In this document: positions 1-49,090 of the stretch, one piece after another
Numbering within the stretch: the first letter of the stretch is position 1
Layout: each line of letters begins with the position of its first letter
Source of the DNA: Oscillospiraceae bacterium
Lineage (GTDB): Bacteria; Bacillota; Clostridia; Oscillospirales; Acutalibacteraceae
Assembly (NCBI GenBank): GCA_015065585.1
Contig: SVQC01000003.1
Coordinates: 1,363-65,362 of the forward strand
Reading direction: 5' to 3'
DNA length: 64,000 bases
Made by a program: the position numbers and the translations under genes
The notes under the pieces: generated by a model
What the model was told of the DNA's origin: nothing
Databases searched by the model: none
Seen by the model: only the letters and a program-made list of their open reading frames with translations

Positions 1-5593
<5,593 letters not shown>

Positions 5594-30901: not shown

Positions 30902-31708
30902 TTAGATTTTAAATATTTTTTTTGCATTCAATCCTAACATTTTTTCCCGTTCTTCATGGGTAAACTCAAGAGATAAAAAGGTTTCCATTTCCCTTTTTGG
31001 AGACCACATAGGATAATCGGTACCAAAAAGAATTCTGTCCGCCCCGTATTTTTTCATAAGGGCATAAATCTCTTCCTTTTGTGTAAATCCGAAACAGGAA
31101 GAACAATCAACATAAAGATTTTTATATTCCGAAAGCTTTTCATAAGCTTCCTGCCACACCGACCAGCCTGCAAGATGAGCACCGATAAAGGTTAAATCCC
31201 TGAAAGTTTTAAGTATAGGTAAAATGCGATTTGGATTAGAATAATCGTAGCGGTAGTCACCGGTATGCATAAGCATTACAAGATTGTTTTCCTCACAAAG
31301 CGCGTATATCTCCATACATCTTTTATTATCGCACTCGAACTGCTGTATATCGGGATGAAGCTTTACACCCTTCAATCCTAGTTCTAAAAGATGTTTTACG
31401 TCGCCTTTTAAATCATCGCTATCAGGATGAAGCGTTCCAAGTCCCGTAAGCTTACCGTTATATTCGGTTACGGTCTTTGCAATAAACTCATTTATGCTTT
31501 TAACCTGATGAGGCGTTGTCGCCACCGATTGCACTATAAAATGGTCAACCCCTGCCTCGCTTCCCTGCGCTATTAAATCAGCCACCGTACCGCTACCCGC
31601 CGCAACTGTGTCATAAAATTTGTCAGTACCGGCAACAGCCTTTTGAGCGATTTTCTCAGGATAAATATGGCAATGAGAATCCACCGCATAAAATTTATTT
31701 TGTACCAT
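30902..31708 (-). CDS. Amidohydrolase_2-type metal-dependent hydrolase/decarboxylase family protein
   Basis: The DSHCHIYP N-terminal HxH motif and TIM-barrel-like pattern fit this family. The likely start is MVQNKFYAVDSHCH at 31708 after GGAGAA. The ORF track extends to 31750. Confidence 0.75.
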   Translation of the reverse strand: MVQNKFYAVDSHCHIYPEKIAQKAVAGTDKFYDTVAAGSGTVADLIAQGSEAGVDHFIVQSVATTPHQVKSINEFIAKTVTEYNGKLTGLGTLHPDSDDLKGDVKHLLELGLKGVKLHPDIQQFECDNKRCMEIYALCEENNLVMLMHTGDYRYDYSNPNRILPILKTFRDLTFIGAHLAGWSVWQEAYEKLSEYKNLYVDCSSCFGFTQKEEIYALMKKYGADRILFGTDYPMWSPKREMETFLSLEFTHEEREKMLGLNAKKIFKI

Positions 31709-31721
31709 TGTTTTCTCCGAA

Positions 31722-34223
31722 TTATTTAAGTCCCAATTTTTCGGCGGCATCTTCTCTCATTTTATATTTGAGAATTTTTCCTGCCGCATTCATAGGAAAT
31801 TTATCCATAAATTCTATATATCTCGGAACCTTATGACGTGCCATATTAGCTGAAATGTAGCCTTTAATTTCTTCCTCGGTCATAGTTTCGCCATCGTTAA
31901 GAATTATACAAGCCATAATTTCCTCGCCATATTGCTTATCAGGTACACCGATAACCTGAACGTCACTTACCTTAGGATTTGTGAATATAAATTCCTCTAT
32001 TTCCTTAGGATAAATATTTTCGCCACCTCTGATAATCATATCCTTAAGACGACCGGTAATGAGATAATTTCCGTCAGGTCTTCTGCAGGCAAGGTCCCCC
32101 GTATGAAGCCAGCCTTCTTTATCTATAGCCGCTTCAGTAGCCTTGGGCATTTTATAGTAGCCCTTCATAATATTATATCCACGGGCAACAAACTCGCCGT
32201 TGACACCATCAGGACAATCCTCTCCTGTTTCAGGGTCAACAATTTTACATTCTACGTTAGCAAAAGCGCTACCAACAGTTTCGGTTCGAACTTCTAAGGA
32301 ATCATACCAACTGCTCATAGTACATCCGGGAGAAGCTTCTGTCTGACCGTAAACAGATACAATTTCTTTCATATTCATAACTTCGGTTGCCTTTTTCATA
32401 AGGTCAGCAGGACAGTTAGAACCTGCCATTATGCCTACACGCATATATGAAAAATCGGTTTTATCAAAATCAGGATGCTGCATCATAGCAATAAACATAG
32501 TTGGTACACCGTTAAAGGCCGTAATATGCTCGTTATGAACACAAGCAAGAGAGGGCTTCGGTGAAAAATATGGCATAGGATACATTGTTGTACCGTGGGT
32601 CATAGATGCAGTCATAGACAGTACCATACCAAAGCAATGGAACATAGGCACCTGAATCATCATTCTGTCAGCGGTAGAAAGGTCCATATGGTCTCCGATA
32701 TACTTACCATTATTTACAACGTTATAATGTGTCAGCATAACACCCTTTGGAAATCCGGTAGTACCCGAAGTATACTGCATATTACAAACATCGTCTTTTT
32801 CAACAGCAGCCGCCAGTCTGTATACCTCTTCTACAGGGGTTTCAGCAGAACGTTCAACAGCCTCCTGCCATGTCATACAGCCTTTTTGTTTAAATCCCAC
32901 AGTAATAACATTACGAAGGAAAGGAAGTTTTTTGCTGTGCAAAGCCTTGCCCGATTTAATAGTTTCAAGTTCGGGGCAAAGTTTAGCAATTATTTCGCCG
33001 TAATCGGTATCCTTGCTTCCCTGAGTCATTATAAGGGTATGGGTATCCGATTGTTTAAGCAAATATTCTGCCTCGTGGATTTTATAAGCGGTGTTTACCG
33101 TAACGAGAACGGCACCGATTTTGGTAGTTGCCCAAAAAGCAATATACCACTGCGGTACATTAGAAGCCCATACGGCAACCTTAGAACCGGCTCTTACACC
33201 CATAGAAACAAGAGCTCTGGCAAAGGTATCCACGTCATCTCTGAACTGACTGTAGGTTCTTGTATAATCAAGCGTTGTATATTTAAAAGCATACTGGTCG
33301 GGAAATTCCTCAACCATTTTATCAAGCACCTGAGGAAAAGTAAGGTCGATAAGTAAATCCTTTTTCCACACAAATTTACCTGTATGACTTTTGTTATAAT
33401 AGAGGGTCGATTCTTTTTTAGAGGTGTCTCCGAACTGCTTCATAAAGTTTACAAACTGAGAGAAAATAATCTCCATATCATCAAGTTCCTCACACCATGA
33501 AGGGTCCCAAATAAGTGAGAAAAAGCCGTCGTAGTTAACACTTCTGAGGGCATTCATCATATCCTTAATAGGCAATTCACCCTCGCCTATGAGACAGTTC
33601 TCGTATGCACCGCCCACATTCTGAGCATCTCTGATATGTACGTGCTTAACATAAGCGCCAAGATTTTTAATAATCTGCTCAGCATCTTCTTTACCTACAA
33701 AAAAAGCTGAATACATATCAAGTGATGCCGCAAGACTATCGCTAGCAAAACGCTCAAGCATATCTCTTAAGAGTTCGGTATTTGAAAAAATACCCGAAGT
33801 TTCGAGAAGTAAGGTTACGTTTAATTCTTCAGCCTTATCAATTACCTTATCGATTATCGAGGCAACGTTCTTTACAGCTTCTTCTTTATCTTCAAAATCA
33901 CCTGCATGAAGACGAACAAAAGGTATTTTAAGCCTTTTAGCAATATCAGCACAAATATTAATTTCTTCTATACACTCATCAAAATCAGCCCTATCACCGA
34001 TATTACAGATAGTGTCTATACAAGGCAATGACAGTTTCTTTTCATAAAGCTTTCTTATGGTAGCGCCGGCTGTATGCTCGTGAAAAGCACCGTTTTTGTC
34101 GGTAAACAAAGGATTTTTTATATTATGAAGTTCAATTCCCTGAAACTTCAAATCTTTTGCAACATCACAAAACTCATCAAAGGATATATTGTGCCATCCT
34201 TTTGTGGAAAAGGAAAATTTCAT
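31722..34223 (-). CDS. Fusion protein: xylose-isomerase-like TIM barrel (AP_endonuc_2) domain + AMP-forming acyl-CoA ligase
   Basis: The N-terminal ~280 aa (GIELHN.., LLLETSG, HVHIRD) resemble sugar-phosphate isomerase/epimerase folds. The C-terminal ~550 aa carry YTSGTTGFPKGVMLTH, YGQTE, GWLHTGD and GRLKDMIIRGGENIYP. The ATG at 34223 lies 2 nt from the upstream stop and follows GAGGAGG. Confidence 0.85.
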   Translation of the reverse strand: MKFSFSTKGWHNISFDEFCDVAKDLKFQGIELHNIKNPLFTDKNGAFHEHTAGATIRKLYEKKLSLPCIDTICNIGDRADFDECIEEINICADIAKRLKIPFVRLHAGDFEDKEEAVKNVASIIDKVIDKAEELNVTLLLETSGIFSNTELLRDMLERFASDSLAASLDMYSAFFVGKEDAEQIIKNLGAYVKHVHIRDAQNVGGAYENCLIGEGELPIKDMMNALRSVNYDGFFSLIWDPSWCEELDDMEIIFSQFVNFMKQFGDTSKKESTLYYNKSHTGKFVWKKDLLIDLTFPQVLDKMVEEFPDQYAFKYTTLDYTRTYSQFRDDVDTFARALVSMGVRAGSKVAVWASNVPQWYIAFWATTKIGAVLVTVNTAYKIHEAEYLLKQSDTHTLIMTQGSKDTDYGEIIAKLCPELETIKSGKALHSKKLPFLRNVITVGFKQKGCMTWQEAVERSAETPVEEVYRLAAAVEKDDVCNMQYTSGTTGFPKGVMLTHYNVVNNGKYIGDHMDLSTADRMMIQVPMFHCFGMVLSMTASMTHGTTMYPMPYFSPKPSLACVHNEHITAFNGVPTMFIAMMQHPDFDKTDFSYMRVGIMAGSNCPADLMKKATEVMNMKEIVSVYGQTEASPGCTMSSWYDSLEVRTETVGSAFANVECKIVDPETGEDCPDGVNGEFVARGYNIMKGYYKMPKATEAAIDKEGWLHTGDLACRRPDGNYLITGRLKDMIIRGGENIYPKEIEEFIFTNPKVSDVQVIGVPDKQYGEEIMACIILNDGETMTEEEIKGYISANMARHKVPRYIEFMDKFPMNAAGKILKYKMREDAAEKLGLK

Positions 34224-34224
34224 A

Positions 34225-35604
34225 TTATGCCTCCTCGTAAACAATCTTGTTTACTGCACTAAGATAAGCGCGTATACTTGCGCCGATAATATCAGTAGAA
34301 ATACCGTTACCAGAATAAAGTTTACCGCCAAAACGAAGCTTAACAAGAGCGCTACCCATAGCCTCTTTACCCTCGGTAACCGATTGAATTTGGAAATCAT
34401 CAAGTTCGAAATGAGAACCGGTAACCTGCTCAATAGCAAGAAATGCCGCATCAATAGGACCGCTACCTATAGAAACACCCTGACAGATCTTTCCGTTCTT
34501 TTCCAGAGCGATTTGAGCGCTGGAAGAAATTATATTACCGGTGTTAACTACATAACTGATAAGTTTATATGTTTCAGGCACTTGTAAAGCAACGCTTGCA
34601 ATAATAGCATCCAGTTCCTTAGAGCCTACGTTCTTTTTCTCTGCAACACGCTTAAATTCATCATAAACCTTACTTTTATCTTCATCACTTAAATCATAGC
34701 CCAGTTTCAATACACTTGCCATAACGGTATTGATATCAGCGTCCTTATCAAGCTCAGCAACCTCTGTATTATCGGAAGCAGAAGCAGCAATTTTACCGAC
34801 TTTAGAGTTATCGCTAATCCATTTAATCTGCTTTATTATGCGATTAAGATTTGTATAATTAATGTTTGACTGAATAGCGAAAGAGTTGCCGCAATTTTTT
34901 ACCATTTCAACAAAAATCTCAAGAGGTACGGCACCGCTGTTCACATTAGTCTTCACTATCGAAACACCATTTCTTACAGCTAAAGTTGCAGAAGCTACAG
35001 CCATACCGTTTTTATTGTCACAAAAAACGCCGGTTTCACAAGGCACTTGCTGACAAATTTTCTTAGCAAAATCAGCAAATTCATCAGGCATCATAGTTTG
35101 GGCAGCGCTGTCATAAAGAGAAATTGCAGTAGCACCCGCTTTAACGGCAGTATTTAAAGCGCTGATAAGAAAATCTTCTTCTCCACGGGTAGCATCAATA
35201 GCGCAGAACTCAACATCTTCTACCTTTTCCTTCGCAAAAGAAATCATCTTTTCAATAAGCAAAAGCATTTTATCAGGCTTTTTATGACAAACATACTCCA
35301 TACCAACGGGAGAAACAGGAAGCTCAACTCTGATGCGCTTATTATTCGCATTAGAAAGAGCGAGAACGGCATTATTGATGCTTTCCTCACTCATACCTGC
35401 GCATACAGACAATATTCCCTTTTTAACAAAGGAAGAAATAGTCTTAACAAGCAGTATGTCGGTTCTTGCATTTTCAATAGTGCCGAGTTCAATAATGTCA
35501 ACGTTAAGATTTTCAAGCTGTCTTGCAATTTCAATTTTCTCCTTAAAACTGTAGTTTCCCTCAACGTGAGCCAGTGTAGTGTCGGCAATTTTGATTTTTC
35601 TCAT
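34225..35604 (-). CDS. 2-isopropylmalate synthase-like protein with degenerate catalytic motifs and intact LeuA-type C-terminal domain
   Basis: It has a DRE-TIM (HMGL-like) N-domain, but TTLAHVEGN stands in place of TTLRDGEQ, and VFCDNKNGMAVASATLAV in place of HxHNDxGxAxAN. The C-terminal segment (GSGPIDAAFLAIEQVTG..ALVKLRFGGKLYSGNGISTDIIGASIRAYLSAVNKI) matches the LeuA regulatory domain. Confidence 0.75.
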   Translation of the reverse strand: MRKIKIADTTLAHVEGNYSFKEKIEIARQLENLNVDIIELGTIENARTDILLVKTISSFVKKGILSVCAGMSEESINNAVLALSNANNKRIRVELPVSPVGMEYVCHKKPDKMLLLIEKMISFAKEKVEDVEFCAIDATRGEEDFLISALNTAVKAGATAISLYDSAAQTMMPDEFADFAKKICQQVPCETGVFCDNKNGMAVASATLAVRNGVSIVKTNVNSGAVPLEIFVEMVKNCGNSFAIQSNINYTNLNRIIKQIKWISDNSKVGKIAASASDNTEVAELDKDADINTVMASVLKLGYDLSDEDKSKVYDEFKRVAEKKNVGSKELDAIIASVALQVPETYKLISYVVNTGNIISSSAQIALEKNGKICQGVSIGSGPIDAAFLAIEQVTGSHFELDDFQIQSVTEGKEAMGSALVKLRFGGKLYSGNGISTDIIGASIRAYLSAVNKIVYEEA

Positions 35605-35952: not shown

Positions 35953-37017
35953 TTAATCAATAGGACAAGTCCAACCAAAAGTATCTTCAATATTACCCCA
36001 CTGTATACCGGTAAGAGTATCATAAAGATGCTGGGTAACCTCTCCGATTTTTCCGCCGCTAACCTGATGCTTTACACCCTTATAGCAAAGTTCGCCAATA
36101 GGAGAAACAACAGCGGCAGTTCCGCAACCCCAAGCTTCTTCAAGAGTGCCGTCATTCATAGCGGTCTCAAGCTCGTCAACGCTTAAAAGTCTTTCGCTAA
36201 CCTTAAAGCCTTCTTTTCTCAATACTTCAAGGCAGGATTTTCTTGTAATACCGGGAAGAATAGAGCCCGAAAGCATAGGAGTAACAATTTCCCCGTTAAT
36301 TTTGAACATTACGTTCATAGCGCCTACTTCTTCAATATACTTTCTTTCTACACCGTCAAGCCAAAGTACCTGTGAATAACCTTGCTTCTCTGCTCTTTCA
36401 CCTGCACGGTTACTGGCGGCATAGTTACCGCCGCACTTTGCATAACCTGTACCGCCACGAACAGCACGAACATCCTGGTCTTCTATCATAATTTTAACGG
36501 GGTTAATTCCCTCTTTATAATAACTGCCTACAGGAGAAGCTATTATAACAAAGGTGGCGTTATGTACGGCATGAACCCCTAAGGTTTCATCATTGCCGAA
36601 CATAAACGGGCGAAGATAAAGCGAAGTCCCGGGAGCACTTGGTGTCCAATCCTGCTCAAGTGCAACAAAGGTCTTAAGAGCCTCCATAGCATCTGCTTCA
36701 TCAAGCTGAGGAAGACAAAGTCTGTCAGCAGAGCTGTTCATACGGCGGATATTTTCAATAGGACGGAAAAGCTGAACCTTACCGTCTTTTCTTCTATAAG
36801 CCTTAAGGCCCTCAAAGATTTCACTGCCGTAATGAAGAACGGTTGAAGCGGGATGTAAAGAAATATTTTCAAAAGGAACTATTCTTGCGTTATACCAGCC
36901 CTTTTCTTTGGAATAGTCCATCATAAGCATATGGTCGGTAAAATATTTACCAAAGCCTAAAACACTGCTGTCAGGTTTTTCCTTAGGACAGGTTGTTTTT
37001 GTTATAGAAATATTCAT
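35953..37017 (-). CDS. ilvE: Branched-chain amino acid aminotransferase
   Basis: 354 aa, fold-type IV aminotransferase of the long Firmicutes type (..LHYGSEIFEGLKAYR.., GGTGYAKCGGNYAAS, GITR). Confidence 0.9.
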   Translation of the reverse strand: MNISITKTTCPKEKPDSSVLGFGKYFTDHMLMMDYSKEKGWYNARIVPFENISLHPASTVLHYGSEIFEGLKAYRRKDGKVQLFRPIENIRRMNSSADRLCLPQLDEADAMEALKTFVALEQDWTPSAPGTSLYLRPFMFGNDETLGVHAVHNATFVIIASPVGSYYKEGINPVKIMIEDQDVRAVRGGTGYAKCGGNYAASNRAGERAEKQGYSQVLWLDGVERKYIEEVGAMNVMFKINGEIVTPMLSGSILPGITRKSCLEVLRKEGFKVSERLLSVDELETAMNDGTLEEAWGCGTAAVVSPIGELCYKGVKHQVSGGKIGEVTQHLYDTLTGIQWGNIEDTFGWTCPID

Positions 37018-37035: not shown

Positions 37036-37569
37036 TCAGTTTTCAGCACCAATCTGCATAGCCTTGCGGTTTATTTCAGCCATATCAGCACGTTTTGCCG
37101 ATATAACCTTTGCAAGAGCAGCATCAACGCTTTCCTTTTCATAGTCGTTAATTTTGCTGAGCACCTTACCTACAATAATCATATTGGCAAGCGTTGGCAT
37201 ATTATTATCACTTGCAAGCTTAGTTGCAGGGATATAGAACACCTTAACGTCATCTCTTAAAACTTTTCTTTCAATAAGAGTAGAATCAAGGAATATCATA
37301 CCACCGGGAGCAACGGTGGATTCATATTTATCAAGAGAAGGAAGATTCATTGCAATAAGCACATCAGGTTTTGAAACTATAGGAGAACCTACGGGCTCGT
37401 CACTAACGATAACGCTACAACTGGCTGTGCCGCCACGCATTTCAGGGCCGTAAGAAGGAAGCCAGCTTACCTGCTTATCGTCGATAAGACCTTTATAAGC
37501 CATAAATTTTCCGGCAAAAAGAATACCCTGACCGCCGAAACCCGAAAATAAGAACTGTGTAGTAGCCAT
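37036..37569 (-). CDS. 2-oxoacid:ferredoxin oxidoreductase, gamma subunit
   Basis: 177 aa starting [17 protein letters not shown], typical of POR/KOR/VOR gamma subunits. It is translationally coupled to the beta subunit. Confidence 0.88.
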
Positions 37570-38324
37570 TATTCTTCCCCCTTTTCTGCGCTTCTGTCTT
37601 TATAAACGCCAAGCGGATAGTAAGGAATCATTTTTTCGTCAATCCACTCTAAAGCCTTTTTCGGAGTCATGCCCCAGTTGGTAGGACAGGAAGAAATAAC
37701 CTCAACAAGCGAAAAACCTTTTCCCTCTATCTGATTTGTAAAGGCCTTCTTAATAGCCTTCTTGGCATTTTTAATATTTTTAACGTTATTAACGGTAACT
37801 CTTTCAAGGTACTCAGGACCGTCAAGCTTAGAAAGCATTTCGCAAACCTTGACGGGATAACCACAAAGATTAACGTCTCTGCCGTAAGGAGAGGTCTGAG
37901 TTACCTGACCGGGAAGTGATGTTGGAGCCATCTGACCGCCGGTCATACCGTAAATAGCATTATTAATAAAAATTACTGTGATGTTTTCATTACGGGCGGC
38001 GCTATGAACAGTTTCAGCCATACCGATAGAAGCAAGGTCGCCGTCGCCCTGATAAGTGAATACAATATGATTTTCGGGGTCGGCTCTCTTAACACCGGTT
38101 GCAACAGCAGGAGCGCGTCCGTGAGCAGCCTCAATCATATCACAGTTAAAATAATTATAAGCCATAACAGAACAGCCTACTGGGGCAACACCAATAGTTT
38201 TGCCTTCAATACCAAGCTCGTCAATAACCTCGGCAACAAGACGGTGAACTATACCGTGTGTGCAACCGGGACAATAATGCATAGGCACATCTGTAAGTGC
38301 ATGAGGTTTATCAAAAACTATCAT
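37569..38324 (-). CDS. 2-oxoacid:ferredoxin oxidoreductase, beta (TPP-binding) subunit
   Basis: CPGCTHG cluster ligands, the TPP motif YQGDGDLASIG..NNAIYGMTGGQ. Confidence 0.9.
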   Translation of the reverse strand: MIVFDKPHALTDVPMHYCPGCTHGIVHRLVAEVIDELGIEGKTIGVAPVGCSVMAYNYFNCDMIEAAHGRAPAVATGVKRADPENHIVFTYQGDGDLASIGMAETVHSAARNENITVIFINNAIYGMTGGQMAPTSLPGQVTQTSPYGRDVNLCGYPVKVCEMLSKLDGPEYLERVTVNNVKNIKNAKKAIKKAFTNQIEGKGFSLVEVISSCPTNWGMTPKKALEWIDEKMIPYYPLGVYKDRSAEKGEE

Positions 38325-39397
38325 TATTTTGCGCCTCCTTTTGCAGCTTCTTTAATAGCGTCAAGCACCTGCTCAGGTGAAGGAATCATACCGCCAGCAC
38401 GGTTGCAAAGGGTTACGGGAACCTTGCAAGAGGTAGCAAGACGCACGTCCTCTATCATCTGACCCATTGAAAGTTCAACAGATATTATACTGCTAACCTT
38501 GTCAACAGCCTTGCTGAAAACTTCTGTGGGGAAAGGCCAAAGGGTAATAGGTCTAATAAGGCCAACCTTTATACCTTGCTTTCTTGCTTCGTTAATTGCG
38601 TTTTTAGAAACACGGGCAGCAATACCGAATGCAGCAATACAAATTTCAGCATCGTCCATAAGATACTCTTCCCACATAGCTTCATTTTCTTCTATGTATT
38701 TATATCTCTCAAAACGTTCAAAATTAGACTTTTCAAGCTCATCGGGAACAAGGAAAAGAGAATTTACAATATTATGTTCGCGTTCCATCTTTGTACCGGT
38801 AGTTGCCCACGGCTTTGCTACAGGTTCGCTCGTTGCAAAATCAAGAGAAACAGGCTCCATCATCTGACCCATAGTACCGTCAGCCAAAATCATAGATGTC
38901 ATACGGTATTTATCGGCAAGGTCGAAGCCCTTAACGGTGAGGTCTGCCATTTCCTGAACAGAAGCAGGGGCAAGAACTATCATTTTAAAGTCGCCGTGGC
39001 CACCGGCTTTTGTGGCTTGGAAATAGTCAGACTGAGAAGGCTGTATACCTCCAAGACCGGGACCACCACGTTGTACATTGACAACAAGAGAAGGAAGGTC
39101 GGCACCTGCAAGATAAGAAAGACCTTCACCTTTTAAAGAAATTCCGGGACTTGAAGAAGAAGTCATAACACGTTTGCCGGTTGAAGCAACGCCGTAAACC
39201 ATATTTATAGCGGCAATTTCACTTTCAGCCTGAAGGAAAGTTCCACCAATTTTAGGCATACGCTTTGCCATATAAGCGGCAATTTCGGTCTGAGGAGTTA
39301 TAGGATAACCAAAGTAATGACGGCAACCCGCAACAATAGCTGCTTCGGCAATAGCCTCATTACCTTTCATTAATACTTTATCTGCCACTTTACTCAC
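38324..39397 (-). CDS. 2-oxoacid:ferredoxin oxidoreductase, alpha subunit
   Basis: 357 aa. MKGNEAIAEAAIVAGCRHYFGYPITPQTEI is the typical alpha-subunit N-terminus. Confidence 0.9.
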   Translation of the reverse strand: MSKVADKVLMKGNEAIAEAAIVAGCRHYFGYPITPQTEIAAYMAKRMPKIGGTFLQAESEIAAINMVYGVASTGKRVMTSSSSPGISLKGEGLSYLAGADLPSLVVNVQRGGPGLGGIQPSQSDYFQATKAGGHGDFKMIVLAPASVQEMADLTVKGFDLADKYRMTSMILADGTMGQMMEPVSLDFATSEPVAKPWATTGTKMEREHNIVNSLFLVPDELEKSNFERFERYKYIEENEAMWEEYLMDDAEICIAAFGIAARVSKNAINEARKQGIKVGLIRPITLWPFPTEVFSKAVDKVSSIISVELSMGQMIEDVRLATSCKVPVTLCNRAGGMIPSPEQVLDAIKEAAKGGAK

Positions 39398-39612
39398 TAC
39401 CTTTCTACCTTAATAATACAGTCAGGACACATTGTAGCGCAGAAAGCGCAACCGATGCAAGCGTCAATATTAGCCGCTTCTACGGGATGATGCCCCTTTT
39501 TGTTGATTTTGTCAGCTGCGAGAATTAAAACCTGTTTGGGACAGGCGTCAACACAAAGACCGCAGCCTTTACAACTATCAGTTTTAAAAGTTAACTTTGC
39601 CAAATTAAACAC
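39397..39612 (-). CDS. 2-oxoacid:ferredoxin oxidoreductase, delta subunit (2x[4Fe-4S] ferredoxin-like)
   Basis: 71 aa with two CxxCxxCxxxCP motifs (CKGCGLCVDACP, CIGCAFCATMCP). It overlaps the alpha start. Confidence 0.88.
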   Translation of the reverse strand: MFNLAKLTFKTDSCKGCGLCVDACPKQVLILAADKINKKGHHPVEAANIDACIGCAFCATMCPDCIIKVER

Positions 39613-39659: not shown

Positions 39660-40331
39660 CTATAAAATTTTGTCCTGCAATTTTAAGCAGAAAAGATTAT
39701 CAATTTTTCCTTGTAATTCACTGAACAATTCTTCCTTAACTGAAGTAAAAACAACGGGAAGATTAGTTACTTTGCTTATGCTATTTGCATATTCTACCGA
39801 ATACATTACGTCGTTTGCCGTAGTTTCCTCACCTAAATTCGAATTATTAACAATGCCCGTAAACTTCATTCTTGCCGCCGCTTCAATTTCACACATTACT
39901 TCTATTAATGAATCGACATCACGGGTCAAAGGGCGGAAGGAATTAACAACCATAAGCATTTCGTAATTGTTTTCCTCTTTAATTTTGTCGGAAATCCTGC
40001 CCAGTACCAAAGCGCCGCGGTCATCTCCGCCTATATCAAGAATACATTTTAAACTTTTATCATCAGTCACCGCGTACATATCCTGCGGAAGCGCGGGTAT
40101 ATCTACATTTGAATTAGCGTAATCAGAACATATAAGCCTTATGCCCTTCTGATTTAAAAGCTGACTGCTGTCCTTAGTTCTGAAATAAGGATTAACAATA
40201 TCAAGGTCGGCAAGGGCGACATTATCATAGGTTTCTTTGATTTTTACAGCCGCGTTAACTGCTATATTGGTTTTACCGCTACCGTAGTGTCCACAGAAAA
40301 GTATAAGCCGTTTATCAAACATAAATGTCAC
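39660..40331 (-). CDS. P-loop NTPase (SIMIBI class, MinD/ParA/CooC-like), function unknown
   Basis: Walker A-like motif GHYGSGKTNIAVN, then DLDIVNPYFR and DIGGDDRG. It sits inside the operon between the synthetase and the oxidoreductase genes, with gaps of 15 and 47 nt. Confidence 0.7.
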   Translation of the reverse strand: MTFMFDKRLILFCGHYGSGKTNIAVNAAVKIKETYDNVALADLDIVNPYFRTKDSSQLLNQKGIRLICSDYANSNVDIPALPQDMYAVTDDKSLKCILDIGGDDRGALVLGRISDKIKEENNYEMLMVVNSFRPLTRDVDSLIEVMCEIEAAARMKFTGIVNNSNLGEETTANDVMYSVEYANSISKVTNLPVVFTSVKEELFSELQGKIDNLFCLKLQDKIL

Positions 40332-40346: not shown

Positions 40347-42635
40347 TTATAACTTATTACGCTGAATTTTTCCGCTGGTAGTTTTAGGAAGACTTTCCTT
40401 GAAAACTACGATACGGGGATATTTATACGGAGCAGTTCTGTCCTTAACGTATTTTTGAATTTCCTTTTTAAGTTCTTCTGTAGGTTCAGTTCCCGAAACA
40501 AGCACGATACTTGCCTTAACGACCTGTCCTCTGACTTCATCGGGAGCAGCAGAAACACCGCACTCAAGAACATAAGGAAGTTCCATAATAACGCTTTCTA
40601 TTTCAAAAGGTCCGATACGGTATCCTGAGGACTTGATAACGTCATCAACTCTGCCCACATACCAATAGAAACCATCTTCATCGCGCCAAGCGGTATCACC
40701 GGTATGATAATAACCGTCACGCCACGTATCCTTTGTTTTTTCCTCATCACCAAAGTAACAGGAAGCAAGACCGCAAGGCAAACCATTATTTATATTAATA
40801 ACGATTTCGCCCGTCTCACCGACAGGAACATCATTACCGTCTGCATCTATAATATGAACGTCATAAATAGGAGCAGGTTTACCCATTGAACCGATTTTGT
40901 GAGGCGCACCAGTCATATTACCTATTATCATGGTACTCTCGGTCTGACCGAAGCCTTCCAGAATCTGAAGTCCAGTAATCTTTTCAAACTGACGGTAAAC
41001 CTCGGGATTAAGCGCCTCACCCGCAGTAGTCATATGCTTAACCGAAGATAAATCATACTGAGAAATATCCTGCTTTATAAGCATTCTGAGCATAGTAGGA
41101 GGTGCACAGAAAGTGGTAATGTTATGCTTAGCAAACATAGGCAGTATCTCTGCCGCATCAAAACGGTCAAAGTCATATACAAATATGCCTGCCTCACAAA
41201 GCCATTGTCCGTAAATTTTACCCCAAGTAGCCTTAGCCCAACCCGTATCGGAAATGGTAAAATGAAGACCGTCAGGATCCACACAATGCCAATACTTAGC
41301 TGTATGAAAATGTCCTAGAGGATACTTATAATTATGAGCTGCAATTTTAGGATAACCCGAAGTACCCGACGTAAAATACATAAGCATAAGGTCTTCGCCG
41401 CAAGCCGTATCTTCAGTCCGGTTATAGTGAGTACTGTAAAGGGTGTATTCCTCATCGAAGGTACGCCAGCCATCTTTAGTACCGTTAACGATTAATTTAT
41501 TAACAAGCTGTGGATTGTTTTTTGCCGCAATATCAACCTGATTAGCAGTGTCGCCGTCAGCAGTACAGATAATTGTAGTTACTCCCGCTGATTTAAAACG
41601 GTAGTCAAAATCGTGTTCAAGCAACTGATTAGTTGCAGGAATTGCAATAGCGCCAAGCTTATTAAGGGCGATAATAGAAAACCAGAACTGATAATGCCTT
41701 TTAAGCACCAGCATAACGCGGTCGCCTTTTTTTATACCTATGGATTTAAAATAGTTAGCGCACTGATTAGAAGCTTTCATTATATCCTTAAAGGTAAAAC
41801 TGCGTTCTGCACCGTCCCTTGAAATATGAAGCATCGCTCGCTTATCAGGGGTTTTTTTAGCTATGGCATCAACTACATCGAAGCCGAAATTAAATTTATC
41901 GGTATTTTTAAACTGTACAGAAATTGGTGTACCGTTTTCATTCTCGGTAACGTCAACGTATTTATGGTAAACGCGCTCTTTGGTATCCTTAACTCTTACC
42001 TTAGGCTCTAAAACAGCCTTTGCGGGAATGAGTTCTGGAATAGGCTCGCCTGTAGGATTAAGAACTATAGCGTAGAAAAGACAGTCTTTTCCGCCGATTG
42101 CTATCATACCGTGAGCAACGTCACTATCGTAATAAATACTGTCCCCAGGGCCTAATATTTCCTTATGTTCACCTACCTGAACCATAAGCTGACCCTCAAT
42201 AATTATATCAAGTTCCTGACCCGCATGAGTGGTAAGCTCAATATCCTTACCCTGAGCTTCCTCGCTATAAATATTGCGAACGTAAAGAGGCTCGGCAATA
42301 CGATTCTGGAAAGCATAAGCAAGGTTATAATATGTCATACCGTGAGCCTGAGCAATTTTTTGACCCGAGCCTGCACGGGTAACGGTATAGGATTTAAGGG
42401 TAGGACTGTAACCCTCAATAATATCGGTTACATTAACATTAAGGGCTAAAGCGCAACGATAAATAAAGGCAAAATTTAAATCGCTGTTACCGTTTTCACA
42501 CTCTATATATTCACTTGTAGTTACAGCGGTTTTTTGTGCCATTTCCTCAACAGTAAGACCTTCGATTTCGCGAAGTTCTCTGATACGCCCCGCCATTTCT
42601 TTGATTTTAAAGTCTAATCCTGTAATCTGTTCCAT
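40347..42635 (-). CDS. Fusion protein: XRE-type HTH + cupin (PuuR-like) + ACSM/MACS-type medium/short-chain acyl-CoA synthetase (paralog A)
   Basis: The first ~70 aa are an HTH_3 domain (IRELREIEGLTVEEMAQKTAVTTSEYIECENG). Residues ~110-190 form a cupin (ELDIIIEGQLMVQVGEHKEILGPGDSIYYDSDVAHGM). The rest is AMP-forming synthetase: FTSGTSGYPK, ISDTGW, GFGQTE, YHTGDTAWRDEDGFYWYVGRVDDVIKSSGYRIGPFEIES, TAPYKYPRIVVFKESLPKTTSGKIQR. Confidence 0.88.
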   Translation of the reverse strand: MEQITGLDFKIKEMAGRIRELREIEGLTVEEMAQKTAVTTSEYIECENGNSDLNFAFIYRCALALNVNVTDIIEGYSPTLKSYTVTRAGSGQKIAQAHGMTYYNLAYAFQNRIAEPLYVRNIYSEEAQGKDIELTTHAGQELDIIIEGQLMVQVGEHKEILGPGDSIYYDSDVAHGMIAIGGKDCLFYAIVLNPTGEPIPELIPAKAVLEPKVRVKDTKERVYHKYVDVTENENGTPISVQFKNTDKFNFGFDVVDAIAKKTPDKRAMLHISRDGAERSFTFKDIMKASNQCANYFKSIGIKKGDRVMLVLKRHYQFWFSIIALNKLGAIAIPATNQLLEHDFDYRFKSAGVTTIICTADGDTANQVDIAAKNNPQLVNKLIVNGTKDGWRTFDEEYTLYSTHYNRTEDTACGEDLMLMYFTSGTSGYPKIAAHNYKYPLGHFHTAKYWHCVDPDGLHFTISDTGWAKATWGKIYGQWLCEAGIFVYDFDRFDAAEILPMFAKHNITTFCAPPTMLRMLIKQDISQYDLSSVKHMTTAGEALNPEVYRQFEKITGLQILEGFGQTESTMIIGNMTGAPHKIGSMGKPAPIYDVHIIDADGNDVPVGETGEIVININNGLPCGLASCYFGDEEKTKDTWRDGYYHTGDTAWRDEDGFYWYVGRVDDVIKSSGYRIGPFEIESVIMELPYVLECGVSAAPDEVRGQVVKASIVLVSGTEPTEELKKEIQKYVKDRTAPYKYPRIVVFKESLPKTTSGKIQRNKL

Positions 42636-42662: not shown

Positions 42663-42945
42663 AATAAAAACACCCGCCCCAAAGTAATGCCTTTGAGACG
42701 AGTGGTAAATTAGATTTCACACCCGCGGTACCACTCAAATTGCGGAAATCCGCCACTCTTGGAATCTAACAATTCCTATGCATTAACGCAGCAATCACGG
42801 AGGGGTTCTACTCATATAAAATACTTTCTTCCCCTCAGCTCAGAAGCTACAAACACGAAATCCTATCCTGACGGTTTTCACCTGCCACCGTCTCTCTGAA
42901 AGAAGGTTTTTCACGTCCTCTTCGTCAAAGCCTTTACTGACTGCT
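42663..42945 (-). promoter_or_regulatory. T-box riboswitch leader, specifier read as GUA (Val)
   Basis: Minus strand shows GA motif GACGAAG..CUUCUGAGC, AG bulge AGAGAG (42892-42897) and distal hairpin ACGGU-GGCAGGUGAAA-ACCGU. The specifier loop ends ..UUU-GUA-G-CUUC, with the codon at 42848-42850. The T-box sequence UUUGAGUGGUACCGCG is at 42724-42739. The terminator ACUCGUCUCAAAG-gcauua-CUUUGGGGCGGGU plus a U-run is at 42663-42703. Confidence 0.82.
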
Positions 42946-42947
42946 AT

Positions 42948-42976
42948 ATTTTATCACAAAATTCAGACATTGTCAA
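42948..42976 (-). promoter_or_regulatory. Sigma-A promoter (TTGACA-17 bp-TAAAAT, TG-extended) of the Val-T-box operon
   Basis: Minus strand reads TTGACAatgtctgaattttgtgaTAAAAT. The -35 box begins 30 nt after the stop of the upstream paralog. Confidence 0.7.
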
Positions 42977-43006: not shown

Positions 43007-45274
43007 TTAAAGTTTGTTTCGTTGTATTTTTCCACTGATAGTTTTTGGCAATTCATCCTTAAATACAACAATTCTGGGATATTTATAAGGTGCGGTATGT
43101 TCCTTAACATATACCTGTATTTCTTTCTTAAGTTCTTCGGTAGGTTCTGTACCCGGAAGAAGCACGATACTAGCCTTAACGACCTGTCCTCTTACTTCAT
43201 CGGGAGCAGCAGAAACACCGCACTCAAGAACATAAGGAAGCTCCATAATAACGCTTTCTATTTCAAAAGGTCCGATACGGTATCCTGAGGACTTGATAAC
43301 GTCATCAATACGGCTGACATACCAGAAATATCCATCCTCATCGCGCCAAGCTGTGTCACCTGTATGATACATACCGTCATACCAAGCTTCATTTGTCTTT
43401 TCGTCATCAAGATAGTACTCCTTGAAAAGACCACAAGGAATACCTTCCTTGGTGCGAACAACAATTTCGCCAACCTCACCGTCAGCAACGCTGTTACCAT
43501 AAAGGTCAACTATATCAATATCATACTGAGGTGATGCTTTACCCATAGCGCCGATTTTGGGTGTAGTACCACTTAAGTTAGCAATAGTAAGGGTAGTTTC
43601 GGTCTGACCGAAGCCTTCCATAATCTGAAGTCCCGTAGCTTCCTCAAACTGACGGAAAACCTCAGGATTAAGAGCTTCACCTGCAGTTGTCATATGATGA
43701 ATTGAAGAAAGGTCATACTTTGAAAGGTCACTCTTTACAAGCATTCTGAGCATTGTAGGCGGAGCGCAGAAGGTAGTAATATTGTATTTGGCAAACATAG
43801 GCAAAATTTCATCTGCGTCAAAACGGTCAAAATCATAAACGAAAACCGCGCCTTCACACAGCCATTGTCCGTAAAGCTTACCCCATAGGGATTTACCCCA
43901 ACCCGTATCAGAAATAGTAAGATGTAAACCGTCTCTTTCACAACAATGCCAATATTTTGCAGTAACATAGTGACCTAAGGCGTAGGTATGCTTATGAGCC
44001 GCCATTTTTGGATTACCGGTTGTTCCTGAAGTAAAGAACATAAGAGCAATGTCCTCACCGCAAGAAGCATTTTCTTCTCTTTCGTATTTACCGGTATAAA
44101 GCTTATATTCACCGTCAAAATCGTGCCAACCGTCACGCTTTCCGCCAACCAAAATAAGATTTTTAACGCTTTCACAGTTTTTTGCGGCGCGCTGAGCAAT
44201 TTCTGCAGTATCACCGTCAGCGGTACAAACAAGAGCATTTACCCCTGCTGCATTAAAGCGGTATTCAAAATCGTGTTCCTTAAGCTGATTTGTAGCCGGA
44301 ATAGCCACAGCACCGATTTTGTGCAGTGCTACCATACAGAACCAAAACTGATAATGCCTTTTAAGAACAAGCATTACTTTATCGCCTTTTTTAATTCCTA
44401 AAGAAGTAAAATAGTTAGCGCACTGGTTAGAAGCTCTTTTTATATCCTTAAAGGTAAAACGGCGTTCGTTTTTATTCTTATCAATATGTAGCATTGCTAG
44501 TTTGTCAGGATATTTATCGGCAATTTCATCAACAATGTCAAAGCCGAAATTGAAAATATCTGTATTTTTAAAGTTTATATCAAGAAGCTCTCCGTTTTCG
44601 TTTTCGGTAGTATTAATAAACTTTTCACAAACAAGCTTTTCAGACTTTTTAGCAGAAGCAATACTCTTTCTAACAGTTTCTTCCTTAGTATTATCACCAG
44701 ATAGTACCACAGCACAGAAAACACAGTCTTCCCCACCGATAGCTATCATTCCGTGAGGTGTAGAGCTGTTATAGTAAATGCTGTCACCCTCGTTCAAAAT
44801 TTCGGTATGAGCGCCAATCTGTACCTTTAAGGAACCGCTTAAAACAATATCGAACTCCTGACCCGAGTGGGTAGTAAGCTGAATAGGTTTGTTCTGCTGA
44901 GCAGCGGAATATTCATATCTTACCCAGTAAGGCTCGGCAATTTTATCTCTGAATTTAGGAGCAAGATTTTTAATATCGATACCGTCTTCTTTAGCGGTAG
45001 ACTGACCCATTCCCTTTCTTGTCACAGTATAGCTAGAGAGACGGGCGGAATGGCCCTCTAAAAGCTCGGTTAACTCTACGTCAAAAGCAAGTGCGCACTT
45101 GTGAATAAAGGAGAACGGAATATCGGCATTAGCAGTTTCGTAAGAAATATATTTATCAGCACCAACTTCGGTTTTTTCAGCCATTTCCTCTATAGACCAA
45201 CCCATAATTTCGCGCATTTCCTTTATACGCGCGGCGATTTCCAGTAATTGTTCTTTTGCTGTGTTGGTTTTCAT
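43007..45274 (-). CDS. Fusion protein: XRE-type HTH + cupin + ACSM/MACS-type acyl-CoA synthetase (paralog B)
   Basis: Same three-domain layout as 40347-42635. By eye it is roughly two-thirds identical overall, the C-terminal ~110 aa are nearly identical and the HTH-cupin part is more diverged. Motifs: FTSGTTGNPK, ISDTGW, GFGQTE, GDTAWRDEDGYFWYVSRIDDVIKSSGYRIGPFEIES. Confidence 0.88.
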   Translation of the reverse strand: MKTNTAKEQLLEIAARIKEMREIMGWSIEEMAEKTEVGADKYISYETANADIPFSFIHKCALAFDVELTELLEGHSARLSSYTVTRKGMGQSTAKEDGIDIKNLAPKFRDKIAEPYWVRYEYSAAQQNKPIQLTTHSGQEFDIVLSGSLKVQIGAHTEILNEGDSIYYNSSTPHGMIAIGGEDCVFCAVVLSGDNTKEETVRKSIASAKKSEKLVCEKFINTTENENGELLDINFKNTDIFNFGFDIVDEIADKYPDKLAMLHIDKNKNERRFTFKDIKRASNQCANYFTSLGIKKGDKVMLVLKRHYQFWFCMVALHKIGAVAIPATNQLKEHDFEYRFNAAGVNALVCTADGDTAEIAQRAAKNCESVKNLILVGGKRDGWHDFDGEYKLYTGKYEREENASCGEDIALMFFTSGTTGNPKMAAHKHTYALGHYVTAKYWHCCERDGLHLTISDTGWGKSLWGKLYGQWLCEGAVFVYDFDRFDADEILPMFAKYNITTFCAPPTMLRMLVKSDLSKYDLSSIHHMTTAGEALNPEVFRQFEEATGLQIMEGFGQTETTLTIANLSGTTPKIGAMGKASPQYDIDIVDLYGNSVADGEVGEIVVRTKEGIPCGLFKEYYLDDEKTNEAWYDGMYHTGDTAWRDEDGYFWYVSRIDDVIKSSGYRIGPFEIESVIMELPYVLECGVSAAPDEVRGQVVKASIVLLPGTEPTEELKKEIQVYVKEHTAPYKYPRIVVFKDELPKTISGKIQRNKL

Positions 45275-45292: not shown

Positions 45293-45575
45293 TTAAAAAA
45301 TAAAACCCGTCTCAAAGAATTACTTTGAGACGGGTGTAACAACATACACTCGCGGTACCACTCAAATTGCGGGAATCCGCCACTCTTGGAATCTAACAAT
45401 TCCTATGCCTTTACGCAGCAATCACGGGAAACGTCTACTCGGTATACTTTCGGGCTTCCGGCTCAGAAGGGATGGGTCTTGTAAGAATTCGTATTACCGG
45501 TTTTCAGCAACCACCGGCTCTCTGAAAATACAAAAACTTGACCGTCTTCGTCATAGCTTTTAAAAATTTATGTAA
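45293..45575 (-). promoter_or_regulatory. T-box riboswitch leader, specifier read as AUC (Ile)
   Basis: Minus strand shows GA motif GACGAAG..CUUCUGAGC, AG bulge AGAGAG (45518-45523) and distal hairpin CCGGU-GGUUGCUGAAA-ACCGG. The specifier loop ends ..CCC-AUC-C-CUUC, with the codon at 45471-45473. The T-box sequence UUUGAGUGGUACCGCG is at 45351-45366. The perfect 13-bp terminator ACCCGUCUCAAAG-uaauu-CUUUGAGACGGGU plus UUUUAUUUUUU is at 45293-45335. Confidence 0.82.
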
Positions 45576-45577
45576 AA

Positions 45578-45606
45578 AGTATAACACCACTTTTTACACT
45601 TGTCAA
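45578..45606 (-). promoter_or_regulatory. Sigma-A promoter (TTGACA-17 bp-TATACT) of the Ile-T-box unit
   Basis: Minus strand reads TTGACAagtgtaaaaagtggtgtTATACT. The -35 box begins 7 nt after the GH2 stop codon. Confidence 0.7.
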
Positions 45607-48982: not shown

Positions 48983-49015
48983 AAAAAACGACTTGTGTCA
49001 AACAAGTCGTTTTTT
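48983..49015. terminator. Bidirectional intrinsic terminator (AraC gene / tRNA-Lys)
   Basis: AAAAAACGACTTGT-gtcaa-ACAAGTCGTTTTTT abuts the 3' CCA of the tRNA. Confidence 0.85.
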
Positions 49016-49090
49016 GGTGACCCATCGGAGAATCGAACTCCGGACACCATGATTAAAAGTCATGTGCTCTACCGGCTGAGCTAATGGATC
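49015..49090 (-). tRNA. tRNA-Lys (anticodon UUU), CCA encoded
   Basis: Minus strand reads GATCCATTAGCTCAGCCGGTAGAGCACATGACTTTTAATCATGGTGTCCGGAGTTCGATTCTCCGATGGGTCACCA. It folds as a cloverleaf with a 7-bp acceptor stem (one G-U), D arm, anticodon stem CATGA/TCATG with loop CUUUUAA, and T arm CGGAG-TTCGATT-CTCCG. Confidence 0.93.

Follow-up and report, generated by a model that had tools for sequence, protein, structure and literature searches.

The 64,000-nucleotide stretch analysed here (the window; Oscillospiraceae bacterium, assembly GCA_015065585.1, contig SVQC01000003.1) carries two tandem genes on the minus strand, ACS1 (40347-42635) and ACS2 (43007-45274), each of which encodes a helix-turn-helix (HTH) domain of the XRE type, a cupin domain and a complete AMP-forming acyl-CoA synthetase (ACS) in one polypeptide chain. 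These genes are the covalently joined form of a conserved two-gene module, the two parts of which are encoded in other bacteria and in archaea by separate, adjacent genes, and this relationship is the main new result of the analysis.

Domain organization of ACS1 and ACS2

The preliminary description of this DNA, made from the sequence alone, had reported two ORFs of about 760 residues with an HTH, a cupin and a synthetase in succession, and this is borne out by Pfam, which recognizes HTH_19/HTH_3, Cupin_2, AMP-binding and AMP-binding_C domains in both products. In ACS1 (762 aa) the HTH_19 match spans residues 17-77 (E-value 1.6e-9) and the Cupin_2 match residues 128-190 (2.2e-11), followed by AMP-binding (2.4e-60) and AMP-binding_C (2.9e-20); ACS2 (755 aa) has the same four domains, with E-values of 4.2e-67 and 2.6e-20 for the two synthetase parts. 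The Cupin_2 scores of 43.7 and 46.1 bits are above the cutoff of 27.2. Aligned along their entire length, ACS1 and ACS2 share 65 % identity. On the minus strand the five-helix HTH of ACS1 (residues 12-77) occupies 42405-42602, the cupin barrel (residues 83-195) with its invariant residues R87, H137, E141 and H175 occupies 42051-42389, a weakly conserved linker (residues 196-245) that coincides with the gene junction of the split versions lies at 41901-42050, and the synthetase (residues 246-762 and the stop codon) fills 40347-41900. The corresponding parts of ACS2, also on the minus strand, are at approximately 45047-45244 (HTH), 44693-45031 (cupin) and 43010-44560 (synthetase).

Split versions of both genes occur in other organisms, which could be taken to favour an assembly error or a frameshift that has joined two genes here. 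The reading frame is, however, continuous in single full-length matches (one high-scoring segment pair each) to 68 ACS1 and 52 ACS2 orthologues, and because it is conserved across these independent assemblies, is present in two paralogues of the window and recurs as the same four-domain architecture in 120 of the 120 top database homologues, we consider the artefact, which the preliminary description had named as a way in which its proposal could fail, to be ruled out, with a negligible residual probability. At least 595 matches came from a scan in which each species was represented by a single genome; the architecture is widespread. The best 80 of these, which we used as the orthologous loci, come from Acutalibacteraceae, Oscillospiraceae, Ruminococcaceae and other Clostridia, in genomes assembled from metagenomes of mostly ruminant or human gut, and in most of the orthologous loci the ACS2-type gene is directly upstream of the ACS1-type gene. 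Six of the loci (L036, L058, L069, L070, L072 and L075) have an additional unfused synthetase gene at about 1300-3200, just upstream of the tandem pair, with a product 23-27 % identical to the fused ones. We found no description in the literature of an HTH-cupin module with an acyl-CoA synthetase, and the databases label these proteins only as 'AMP-binding protein'. The fusion is thus a real, widespread and unstudied design, and its novelty is that of a widespread variant which joins a known enzyme family to a known sensor fold.

Split and fused forms of the module

A homologue search with the N-terminal domains only returned mostly contig-end fragments of fused genes. An exhaustive search with residues 1-205 gave 2,796 cluster representatives, 501 of them at E<=1e-10, and the closest relatives of the N-terminal module are stand-alone proteins of about 190 aa (184-202 aa). 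Many of those in this search, 184-195 aa long, cover residues 10-192 at 32-45 % identity, and in end-to-end alignments with the module the identity is 37-47 %. The positions that are invariant across the fused and stand-alone modules include R17, R22, Y43, E47, H137, G139, E141, D165 and H175. In Anaerotruncus, Ligaoa, Acetanaerobacterium, Anaerofustis and one Methanomassiliicoccaceae archaeon the module gene is followed by a gene for an AMP-binding protein of 547-555 aa; at these five loci, where genes have been called, the two either overlap by up to 8 nt or are at most 8 nt apart. In Anaerotruncus the module protein has 196 aa and its synthetase 551 aa.

We inspected 86 loci, among which there are 38 split pairs, 19 fused genes, seven unpaired modules and two with too little downstream sequence to judge; in the remaining 20 the module ORF runs off the end of the sequence and the genes are probably fused. 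A synthetase of the same clade, 42-61 % identical to those of the window, therefore lies directly downstream at 38 of the 45 informative stand-alone loci, bacterial and archaeal alike, and its match begins 62-203 nt past the module stop codon, as expected if the enzyme starts where the module ends. In the archaeal-type loci the split pair adjoins genes for a P-loop protein and for four oxidoreductase subunits, as the fused genes do in the window, and in bacterial split operons a T-box is found upstream of the stand-alone module gene, so the module would be induced together with the enzyme when an amino acid is scarce. One metagenome contig with the archaeal gene order (L144, 1709-6204) has two tandem split pairs beside the P-loop and oxidoreductase genes, which parallels the tandem arrangement of ACS1 and ACS2. 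These split pairs identify the window genes as the fused form of the two-gene module, and the alternation of split and fused forms is as expected of interacting subunits.

The synthetases, their T-box leaders and the associated pathway genes

The synthetase motifs listed in the preliminary description are present. FTSGTSGYPK, GFGQTE, YHTGD, GRVDDVIKSSGYRIGPFEIE and SGKIQR (the last within PKTTSGKIQR) can be read in both translations; they represent the core motifs, among them the phosphate-binding loop, YxTGD, the hinge and the last motif with its catalytic lysine. The closest solved relatives of this part are 3etc (2e-178), a 4-hydroxybutyrate-CoA ligase (3e-103) and human ACSM2A (6e-100); the best NCBIfam model is that of MbcS (NF047394, an equivalog), although the scores of 429.8 and 440.6 bits do not reach its cutoff of 850. 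A Macs enzyme of the 3etc/MbcS group is reported to accept 2-methylbutyrate, and MbcS to help turn branched carboxylic acids into branched-chain fatty acids (PMC10455477, PMC10026030). The assignment of the C-terminal half to ACSM/MACS-type enzymes for branched acids, made in the preliminary description, agrees with these relatives, with the completeness of the enzyme and with a branched-chain gene context, and both genes probably encode a catalytically complete AMP-forming synthetase of short branched carboxylic acids.

Each paralogue stands behind a T-box of its own. There are three strong promoters in the window, which match the consensus at 11-12 of 12 positions, are all TG-extended and are each followed by a T-box and a terminator. 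The ACS1 promoter (TTGACA-17-TAAAAT with a TG extension; 42948-42976, minus strand) is conserved in 79 orthologous upstream regions and precedes a T-box leader at 42691-42937 (minus strand; Rfam RF00230, 95.6 bits; terminator 42671-42704) in which the specifier is read as GUA (valine) and GTTTGTAGCTTC is conserved in orthologues. The -35 and extended -10 elements of the ACS2 promoter (TTGACA-17-TATACT with a TG extension; 45578-45606, minus strand) are kept in 56 orthologous upstream regions, and the leader that follows (45323-45563, minus strand; terminator 45305-45335) has a specifier that we read as AUC (isoleucine); its RF00230 match of 81.7 bits (E-value 6e-17) is under the Rfam gathering score of 93, and its specifier region CCCATC-A is conserved in orthologues. 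In the window the AUC is followed by C and not by the usual purine, the consensus of the orthologous leaders being A. The third T-box, with the leucine specifier CUC, is upstream of a LeuA-like gene.

Downstream of ACS1, and likewise on the minus strand, are genes for a 223-aa P-loop protein (39660-40331), a four-subunit 2-oxoacid:ferredoxin oxidoreductase (37036-39612; delta ferredoxin subunit 39397-39612, alpha 38324-39397, beta 37569-38324 and gamma 37036-37569) and a class IV (branched-chain) aminotransferase (35953-37017; Pfam Aminotran_4, 2e-31). In Pfam the P-loop protein has only sub-threshold CbiA/ParA matches, and searches of the NCBIfam models and of the PDB gave nothing, but it is conserved: bacteria and archaeal-type contigs have homologues, 40-43 % identical, in the same place between the genes for synthetase and oxidoreductase. 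Rumen anaerobes convert a branched acid to its acyl-CoA, carboxylate this reductively to the 2-oxoacid and so obtain the branched-chain amino acid, and synthetase, P-loop protein, oxidoreductase and aminotransferase make up the gene set expected for such a route. Together with the Val and Ile T-boxes, the oxidoreductase and the aminotransferase genes thus point to a pathway from branched fatty acids to branched-chain amino acids. From homology, the T-box specifiers and the neighbouring genes we infer that the substrate of ACS1 would be isobutyrate and that of ACS2 2-methylbutyrate; two of the five paralogue-specific positions of the synthetase domain, A467G and A482G (Ala in ACS1, Gly in ACS2), would be compatible with a larger C5 substrate in ACS2, the paralogue under the Ile T-box.

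Divergence of the N-terminal module between the paralogues

Within orthologue groups the N-terminal module is conserved nearly as well as the enzyme (identity 0.73 for the HTH, 0.79 for residues 78-120, 0.77 for the cupin and 0.80 for the ACS-N segment), whereas between the paralogues identity falls to 45 % in the HTH, 47 % in residues 78-120 and 59 % in the cupin, as against 70 % in ACS-N and 88 % in ACS-C. The preliminary description had called the HTH-cupin part the most diverged region between the paralogues, which is right in substance, although the 50-aa linker, with its low predicted local confidence (pLDDT), is lower still at 30 % (0.57 and 0.43 within the two orthologue groups). Of the 22 paralogue-specific fixed positions, 17 fall in residues 1-195, most densely in 78-133. 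Conservation among orthologues combined with divergence between paralogues argues that the module is functional and bears specificity, and the pattern fits a sensor tuned to the valine branch in one paralogue and to the isoleucine branch in the other. Different ligands for the two proteins, one half of an earlier suggestion, are compatible with these positions; for different operators, the other half, no conserved operator was found in the orthologous promoters.

The same pattern bears on the idea that the module senses nothing and is only a dimerization or scaffold domain or a relic of evolution. Cupins and XRE domains often mediate dimerization, and the linker, which shows little conservation, is probably flexible; both would suit such a role. 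The strong purifying selection among orthologues, the concentration of paralogue-specific positions in residues 78-133 and the retention of the putative ligand-site residues H137, E141, H175 and R87 in fused and split forms speak against it, and we regard it as improbable.

Structure and sequence of the HTH and cupin domains

The preliminary description had allowed for the HTH being degenerate, but the AlphaFold 2 (AF2) model of the module shows a canonical five-helix XRE fold (helices 6-25, 29-35, 40-47, 55-65 and 69-74 in ACS1), with a pLDDT of about 90, and on this confident prediction it is not degenerate as a fold. When the positions that contact DNA in the 434 repressor were assigned in 69 orthologues by alignment to that protein, they were found to be variable or acidic: position 29 is P in 31, V in 18 and T in 7; position 40 is V in 23, E in 17 and T in 12; position 41 is acidic (E or D; E in 49); position 45 is A in 19, R in 13 and E in 11; and D52 is invariant. 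The canonical E-R-G after helix 3 is replaced by E-N/S/A-G, and E42, Y43, C46, E47 and residues 52-62 are nearly invariant in the same set. The invariant R22 and E47 correspond to what we take to be the structural R10-E35 salt-bridge pair of 434 and are therefore uninformative on DNA binding. The net charge of the HTH (residues 12-77), a heuristic measure, is -6 in ACS1 and averages -7.4 in 45 family members (range -11 to -1), compared with +4 for 434, +1 for PuuR, +3 for 1y9q and -2 for DdrO by the same calculation.

In a Foldseek search with the predicted module the best match was 1y9q, followed by HppE, Psf4, HEPD and MPnS (E-values about 1e-13 to 1e-9); full-length matches to HppE-like enzymes have E-values of 4e-14 to 1e-10 and TM scores of 0.5-0.6. 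The family profile matches HppE from end to end (residues 8-183 to 10-194) with an E-value of 2.6e-6, and SinR and the 434 repressor with 1.4e-4 and 8.5e-4, while 1y9q, annotated as an HTH_3-family regulator, is the best PDB match both by sequence and by fold. As judged from profiles and predicted structure, the module is roughly as similar to HppE, an enzyme not known to bind DNA, as to true repressors.

This likeness raises the question of whether the cupin could itself be a metalloenzyme of the kind represented by HppE, HEPD and MPnS, in which a catalytic cupin follows an HTH-like domain; it would then modify the acid, its acyl-adenylate or its acyl-CoA in one further reaction. The matches extend across the whole module, the invariant His-Glu-His triad (H137, E141 and H175) aligns with the HppE metal site, and the coupling to the synthetase is tight. 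PuuR, a plain repressor, has the same His/Glu/His positions, however, so that the triad is no sign of catalysis and does not discriminate; the module and HppE have no more than 17-20 % identity; the pathway, as we reconstruct it, does not call for another step; and HppE-type chemistry requires oxidants, which makes it unlikely in a strict anaerobe. We consider a catalytic cupin about as improbable as a mere scaffold.

Search for an operator

The preliminary description had proposed that the proteins are bifunctional and bind DNA in a ligand-dependent way. An HTH dimer would occupy an operator, and the cupin would sense a branched acid or its acyl-CoA and release the DNA, so that a substrate input would be added to that from tRNA charging. 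Phylogenetic footprinting with MAFFT of 79 ACS1 and 56 ACS2 orthologous upstream regions, from loci whose N-modules are 74-92 % identical to those of the window, revealed no operator block: the promoter hexamers (-35 and extended -10) and the T-box elements are the only conserved features, and conservation is 30-50 % in the spacer and past the -10. Nor was there an excess of inverted repeats in 54 and 49 orthologous promoters, in which the longest perfect repeats measured 5.61 and 5.80 as against 5.56 and 5.32 in composition-matched shuffles; for the genes of the window the operator search covered their own promoters. In the upstream regions of the 38 split loci and in five intergenic regions where the pair diverges from the oxidoreductase operon no shared palindrome was detected, and only T-box terminators and a recurring CTTTTTAT motif, which we take to be a TATA box, were seen there.

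The window does contain a perfect 10-bp inverted repeat, TGTAAAAAGT-N8-ACTTTTTACA, at 45571-45598 over the -10 of the ACS2 promoter, which is a candidate operator in this genome only, since it occurs once in the window and is not conserved in 49 orthologous promoters. Shorter related repeats around the -10 were noted by eye in the two nearest relatives (L001 and L002).

A role as enzyme and repressor is supported by the above-threshold HTH_19/HTH_3 match and the confident XRE fold, by the match to 1y9q, by the existence of unpaired family members, by the repeat over the ACS2 -10 and by a reported DNA-binding acyl-CoA ligase, FadD1 of Pseudomonas aeruginosa (PMC12754631). Ligand-dependent DNA binding has nevertheless found no positive evidence in the searches described above: no conserved operator or palindrome excess accompanies the closely similar N-modules, the one repeat is particular to this genome, the contact positions are variable or acidic and the mean charge of the HTH is negative, the module resembles HppE, its stand-alone relatives are mostly coupled to a synthetase gene, and the expression of the module is itself T-box controlled. 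We place this explanation second, as a rather unlikely one that nonetheless stands well ahead of a catalytic cupin or a scaffold.

A proposed role for the N-terminal module

The most likely of the readings, which we advance tentatively and rank above a DNA-binding bifunctional protein, is that the N-terminal module is a ligand-sensing partner which acts on the synthetase. The acyl-CoA products of ACS1 and ACS2 would enter ferredoxin-dependent reductive carboxylation and then be transaminated to valine and isoleucine, with transcription of the ACS genes gated by the Val and Ile T-boxes. The cupin, with its His-Glu-His site and invariant arginine, would bind a metabolite of the pathway, which could be the acid to be activated, the 2-oxoacid or the final amino acid. 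Packing or oligomerization would be the task of the acidic helical domain, as it is for the equivalent domain of HppE. The module would then gate the first ATP-consuming step post-translationally, adding to the T-box control. A broader version, to which we give somewhat less credence, is that an XRE/cupin module was taken over as a dedicated allosteric partner of one clade of acyl-CoA synthetases, as a separate subunit or as a fusion, in gut Clostridia and Methanomassiliicoccaceae. The architecture and its conservation, the relation of split to fused forms, the T-boxes and the properties of the HTH are direct observations; that the output is enzyme activity and not transcription is our inference, as is the ligand. 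To our knowledge no control of an enzyme of this superfamily (ANL) by such a module has been described, the known mode being lysine acetylation.

Several points weigh against a partner that acts on the enzyme. Every XRE-cupin protein characterized to date acts locally, as a repressor of neighbouring metabolic genes that is released by a pathway metabolite or precursor (PMC7901475), and the split arrangement fits that paradigm also. Seven of the 45 stand-alone relatives (L090, L111, L113, L118, L122, L123 and L136) lack a synthetase gene in the surrounding 3-5 kb and presumably function without one. The HTH_19 scores of the two paralogues (38.0 and 31.8 bits) exceed the Pfam cutoff of 30.2, and AF2, with a 45-sequence alignment, returned the module as XRE fold plus cupin barrel with a pLDDT of 86. 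The pattern of selection does not by itself separate an output on DNA from one on the enzyme, contact between the module and the synthetase is hypothetical (a full-length AF2 model from a shallow alignment, with pLDDT 67.7 and pTM 0.57, is too poor to judge docking), and the bounds already given for the contact positions, the charge and the operator search count on the same side.

The genes that follow the seven unpaired modules were judged from their sequences as Wzy_C-type membrane proteins (two, Pfam-confirmed in L090 only), large glycosidase-like proteins (two), a DNA cytosine methyltransferase (one) and ABC exporters (two).

Other genes in the vicinity

The LeuA-like gene behind the Leu T-box (34225-35604) is followed by a third acyl-CoA synthetase gene in the window (31722-34244, minus strand), whose 840-aa product has a xylose-isomerase-like TIM barrel (AP_endonuc_2, residues 27-244) in front of AMP-binding and AMP-binding_C domains, and then by an Amidohydro_2 gene (30902-31750). 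Upstream of the cluster, the segment 45614-51602 contains a minus-strand ORF of 807 aa, one of 261 aa that diverges from it, a tRNA-Lys(UUU) gene (49015-49090) and an ORF of 802 aa; judged by their translations, the three ORFs probably encode a glycoside hydrolase, a regulator of the AraC type and a leucyl-tRNA synthetase, respectively.

Comparison with known systems

Anaerobes of the rumen and gut are classically known to build valine, leucine and isoleucine from isoacids (branched short-chain fatty acids), and the locus described here is a compact isoacid gene set with amino-acid-specific T-boxes, in which the module travels with the synthetase in hundreds of species of bacteria and archaea. 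The recent literature on isoacids includes feed-supplementation studies in ruminants. If the module controls the enzyme, it would represent a regulatory principle for acyl-CoA synthetases that we have not found described, with a repressor fold reused for the control of a protein; if it binds DNA, it would be a new enzyme-repressor fusion in which substrate and tRNA sensing are combined. Either outcome is directly testable, since the split version is present in cultured organisms (Anaerotruncus, Ligaoa zhengdingensis and Acetanaerobacterium elongatum).

The module shares with the XRE-cupin factors PuuR, PauR, ErfA and PsdR the domain order, a size of about 185-195 aa, the His/Glu/His residues of the cupin and an adjoining gene for a metabolic enzyme, but it is fused or tightly coupled to that enzyme (a synthetase of 520 aa in the window) where the known factors stand alone, and it differs in its acidic HTH, in its variable contact positions and in that no palindromic operator was found at its own promoters. 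The term 'PuuR-like', used in the preliminary description, is apt for the domain architecture; as a family assignment we reject it, since identity to Escherichia coli PuuR is 21 % over 53 residues (E-value 0.005). With HppE, Psf4, HEPD and MPnS the module has in common the fold from end to end (E-value about 1e-13), the profile match and the aligned 2-His-1-Glu triad, and with HppE also an acidic third helix that ends in E-N-G-E. The helical domain of HppE-type enzymes is structural and is not known to bind DNA. These are oxidative phosphonate enzymes of low identity to the module, none of which is known to be joined to a synthetase, and chemistry of that kind is not expected here.

BirA, PutA and NadR combine a DNA-binding-type domain and an enzyme in one chain, a resemblance that the proteins of the window share by architecture only: in those three the ligand state of the enzyme governs binding to a defined operator, whereas here the sensor is a separate domain and no operator was found. 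FadD1 of P. aeruginosa is likewise an ANL enzyme for which a fatty-acid-responsive transcriptional role has been claimed, but it has neither an HTH nor a cupin, its DNA binding being ascribed to a leucine-zipper-like stretch in the AMP-binding domain (PMC12754631).

Compared with 3etc of Methanosarcina acetivorans, MbcS of Staphylococcus aureus and human ACSM2A, the C-terminal 520 residues of ACS1 and ACS2 are a full ANL enzyme in which every core motif is present. In the 3etc chain of 580 residues the match starts at residue 52, which leaves no space there for an HTH-cupin module. No HTH or cupin is mentioned for MbcS (PMC13584741), whose equivalog cutoff is missed by both genes, and while MbcS serves membrane lipid synthesis, the role of ACS1 and ACS2 would be in amino-acid synthesis under T-box control.

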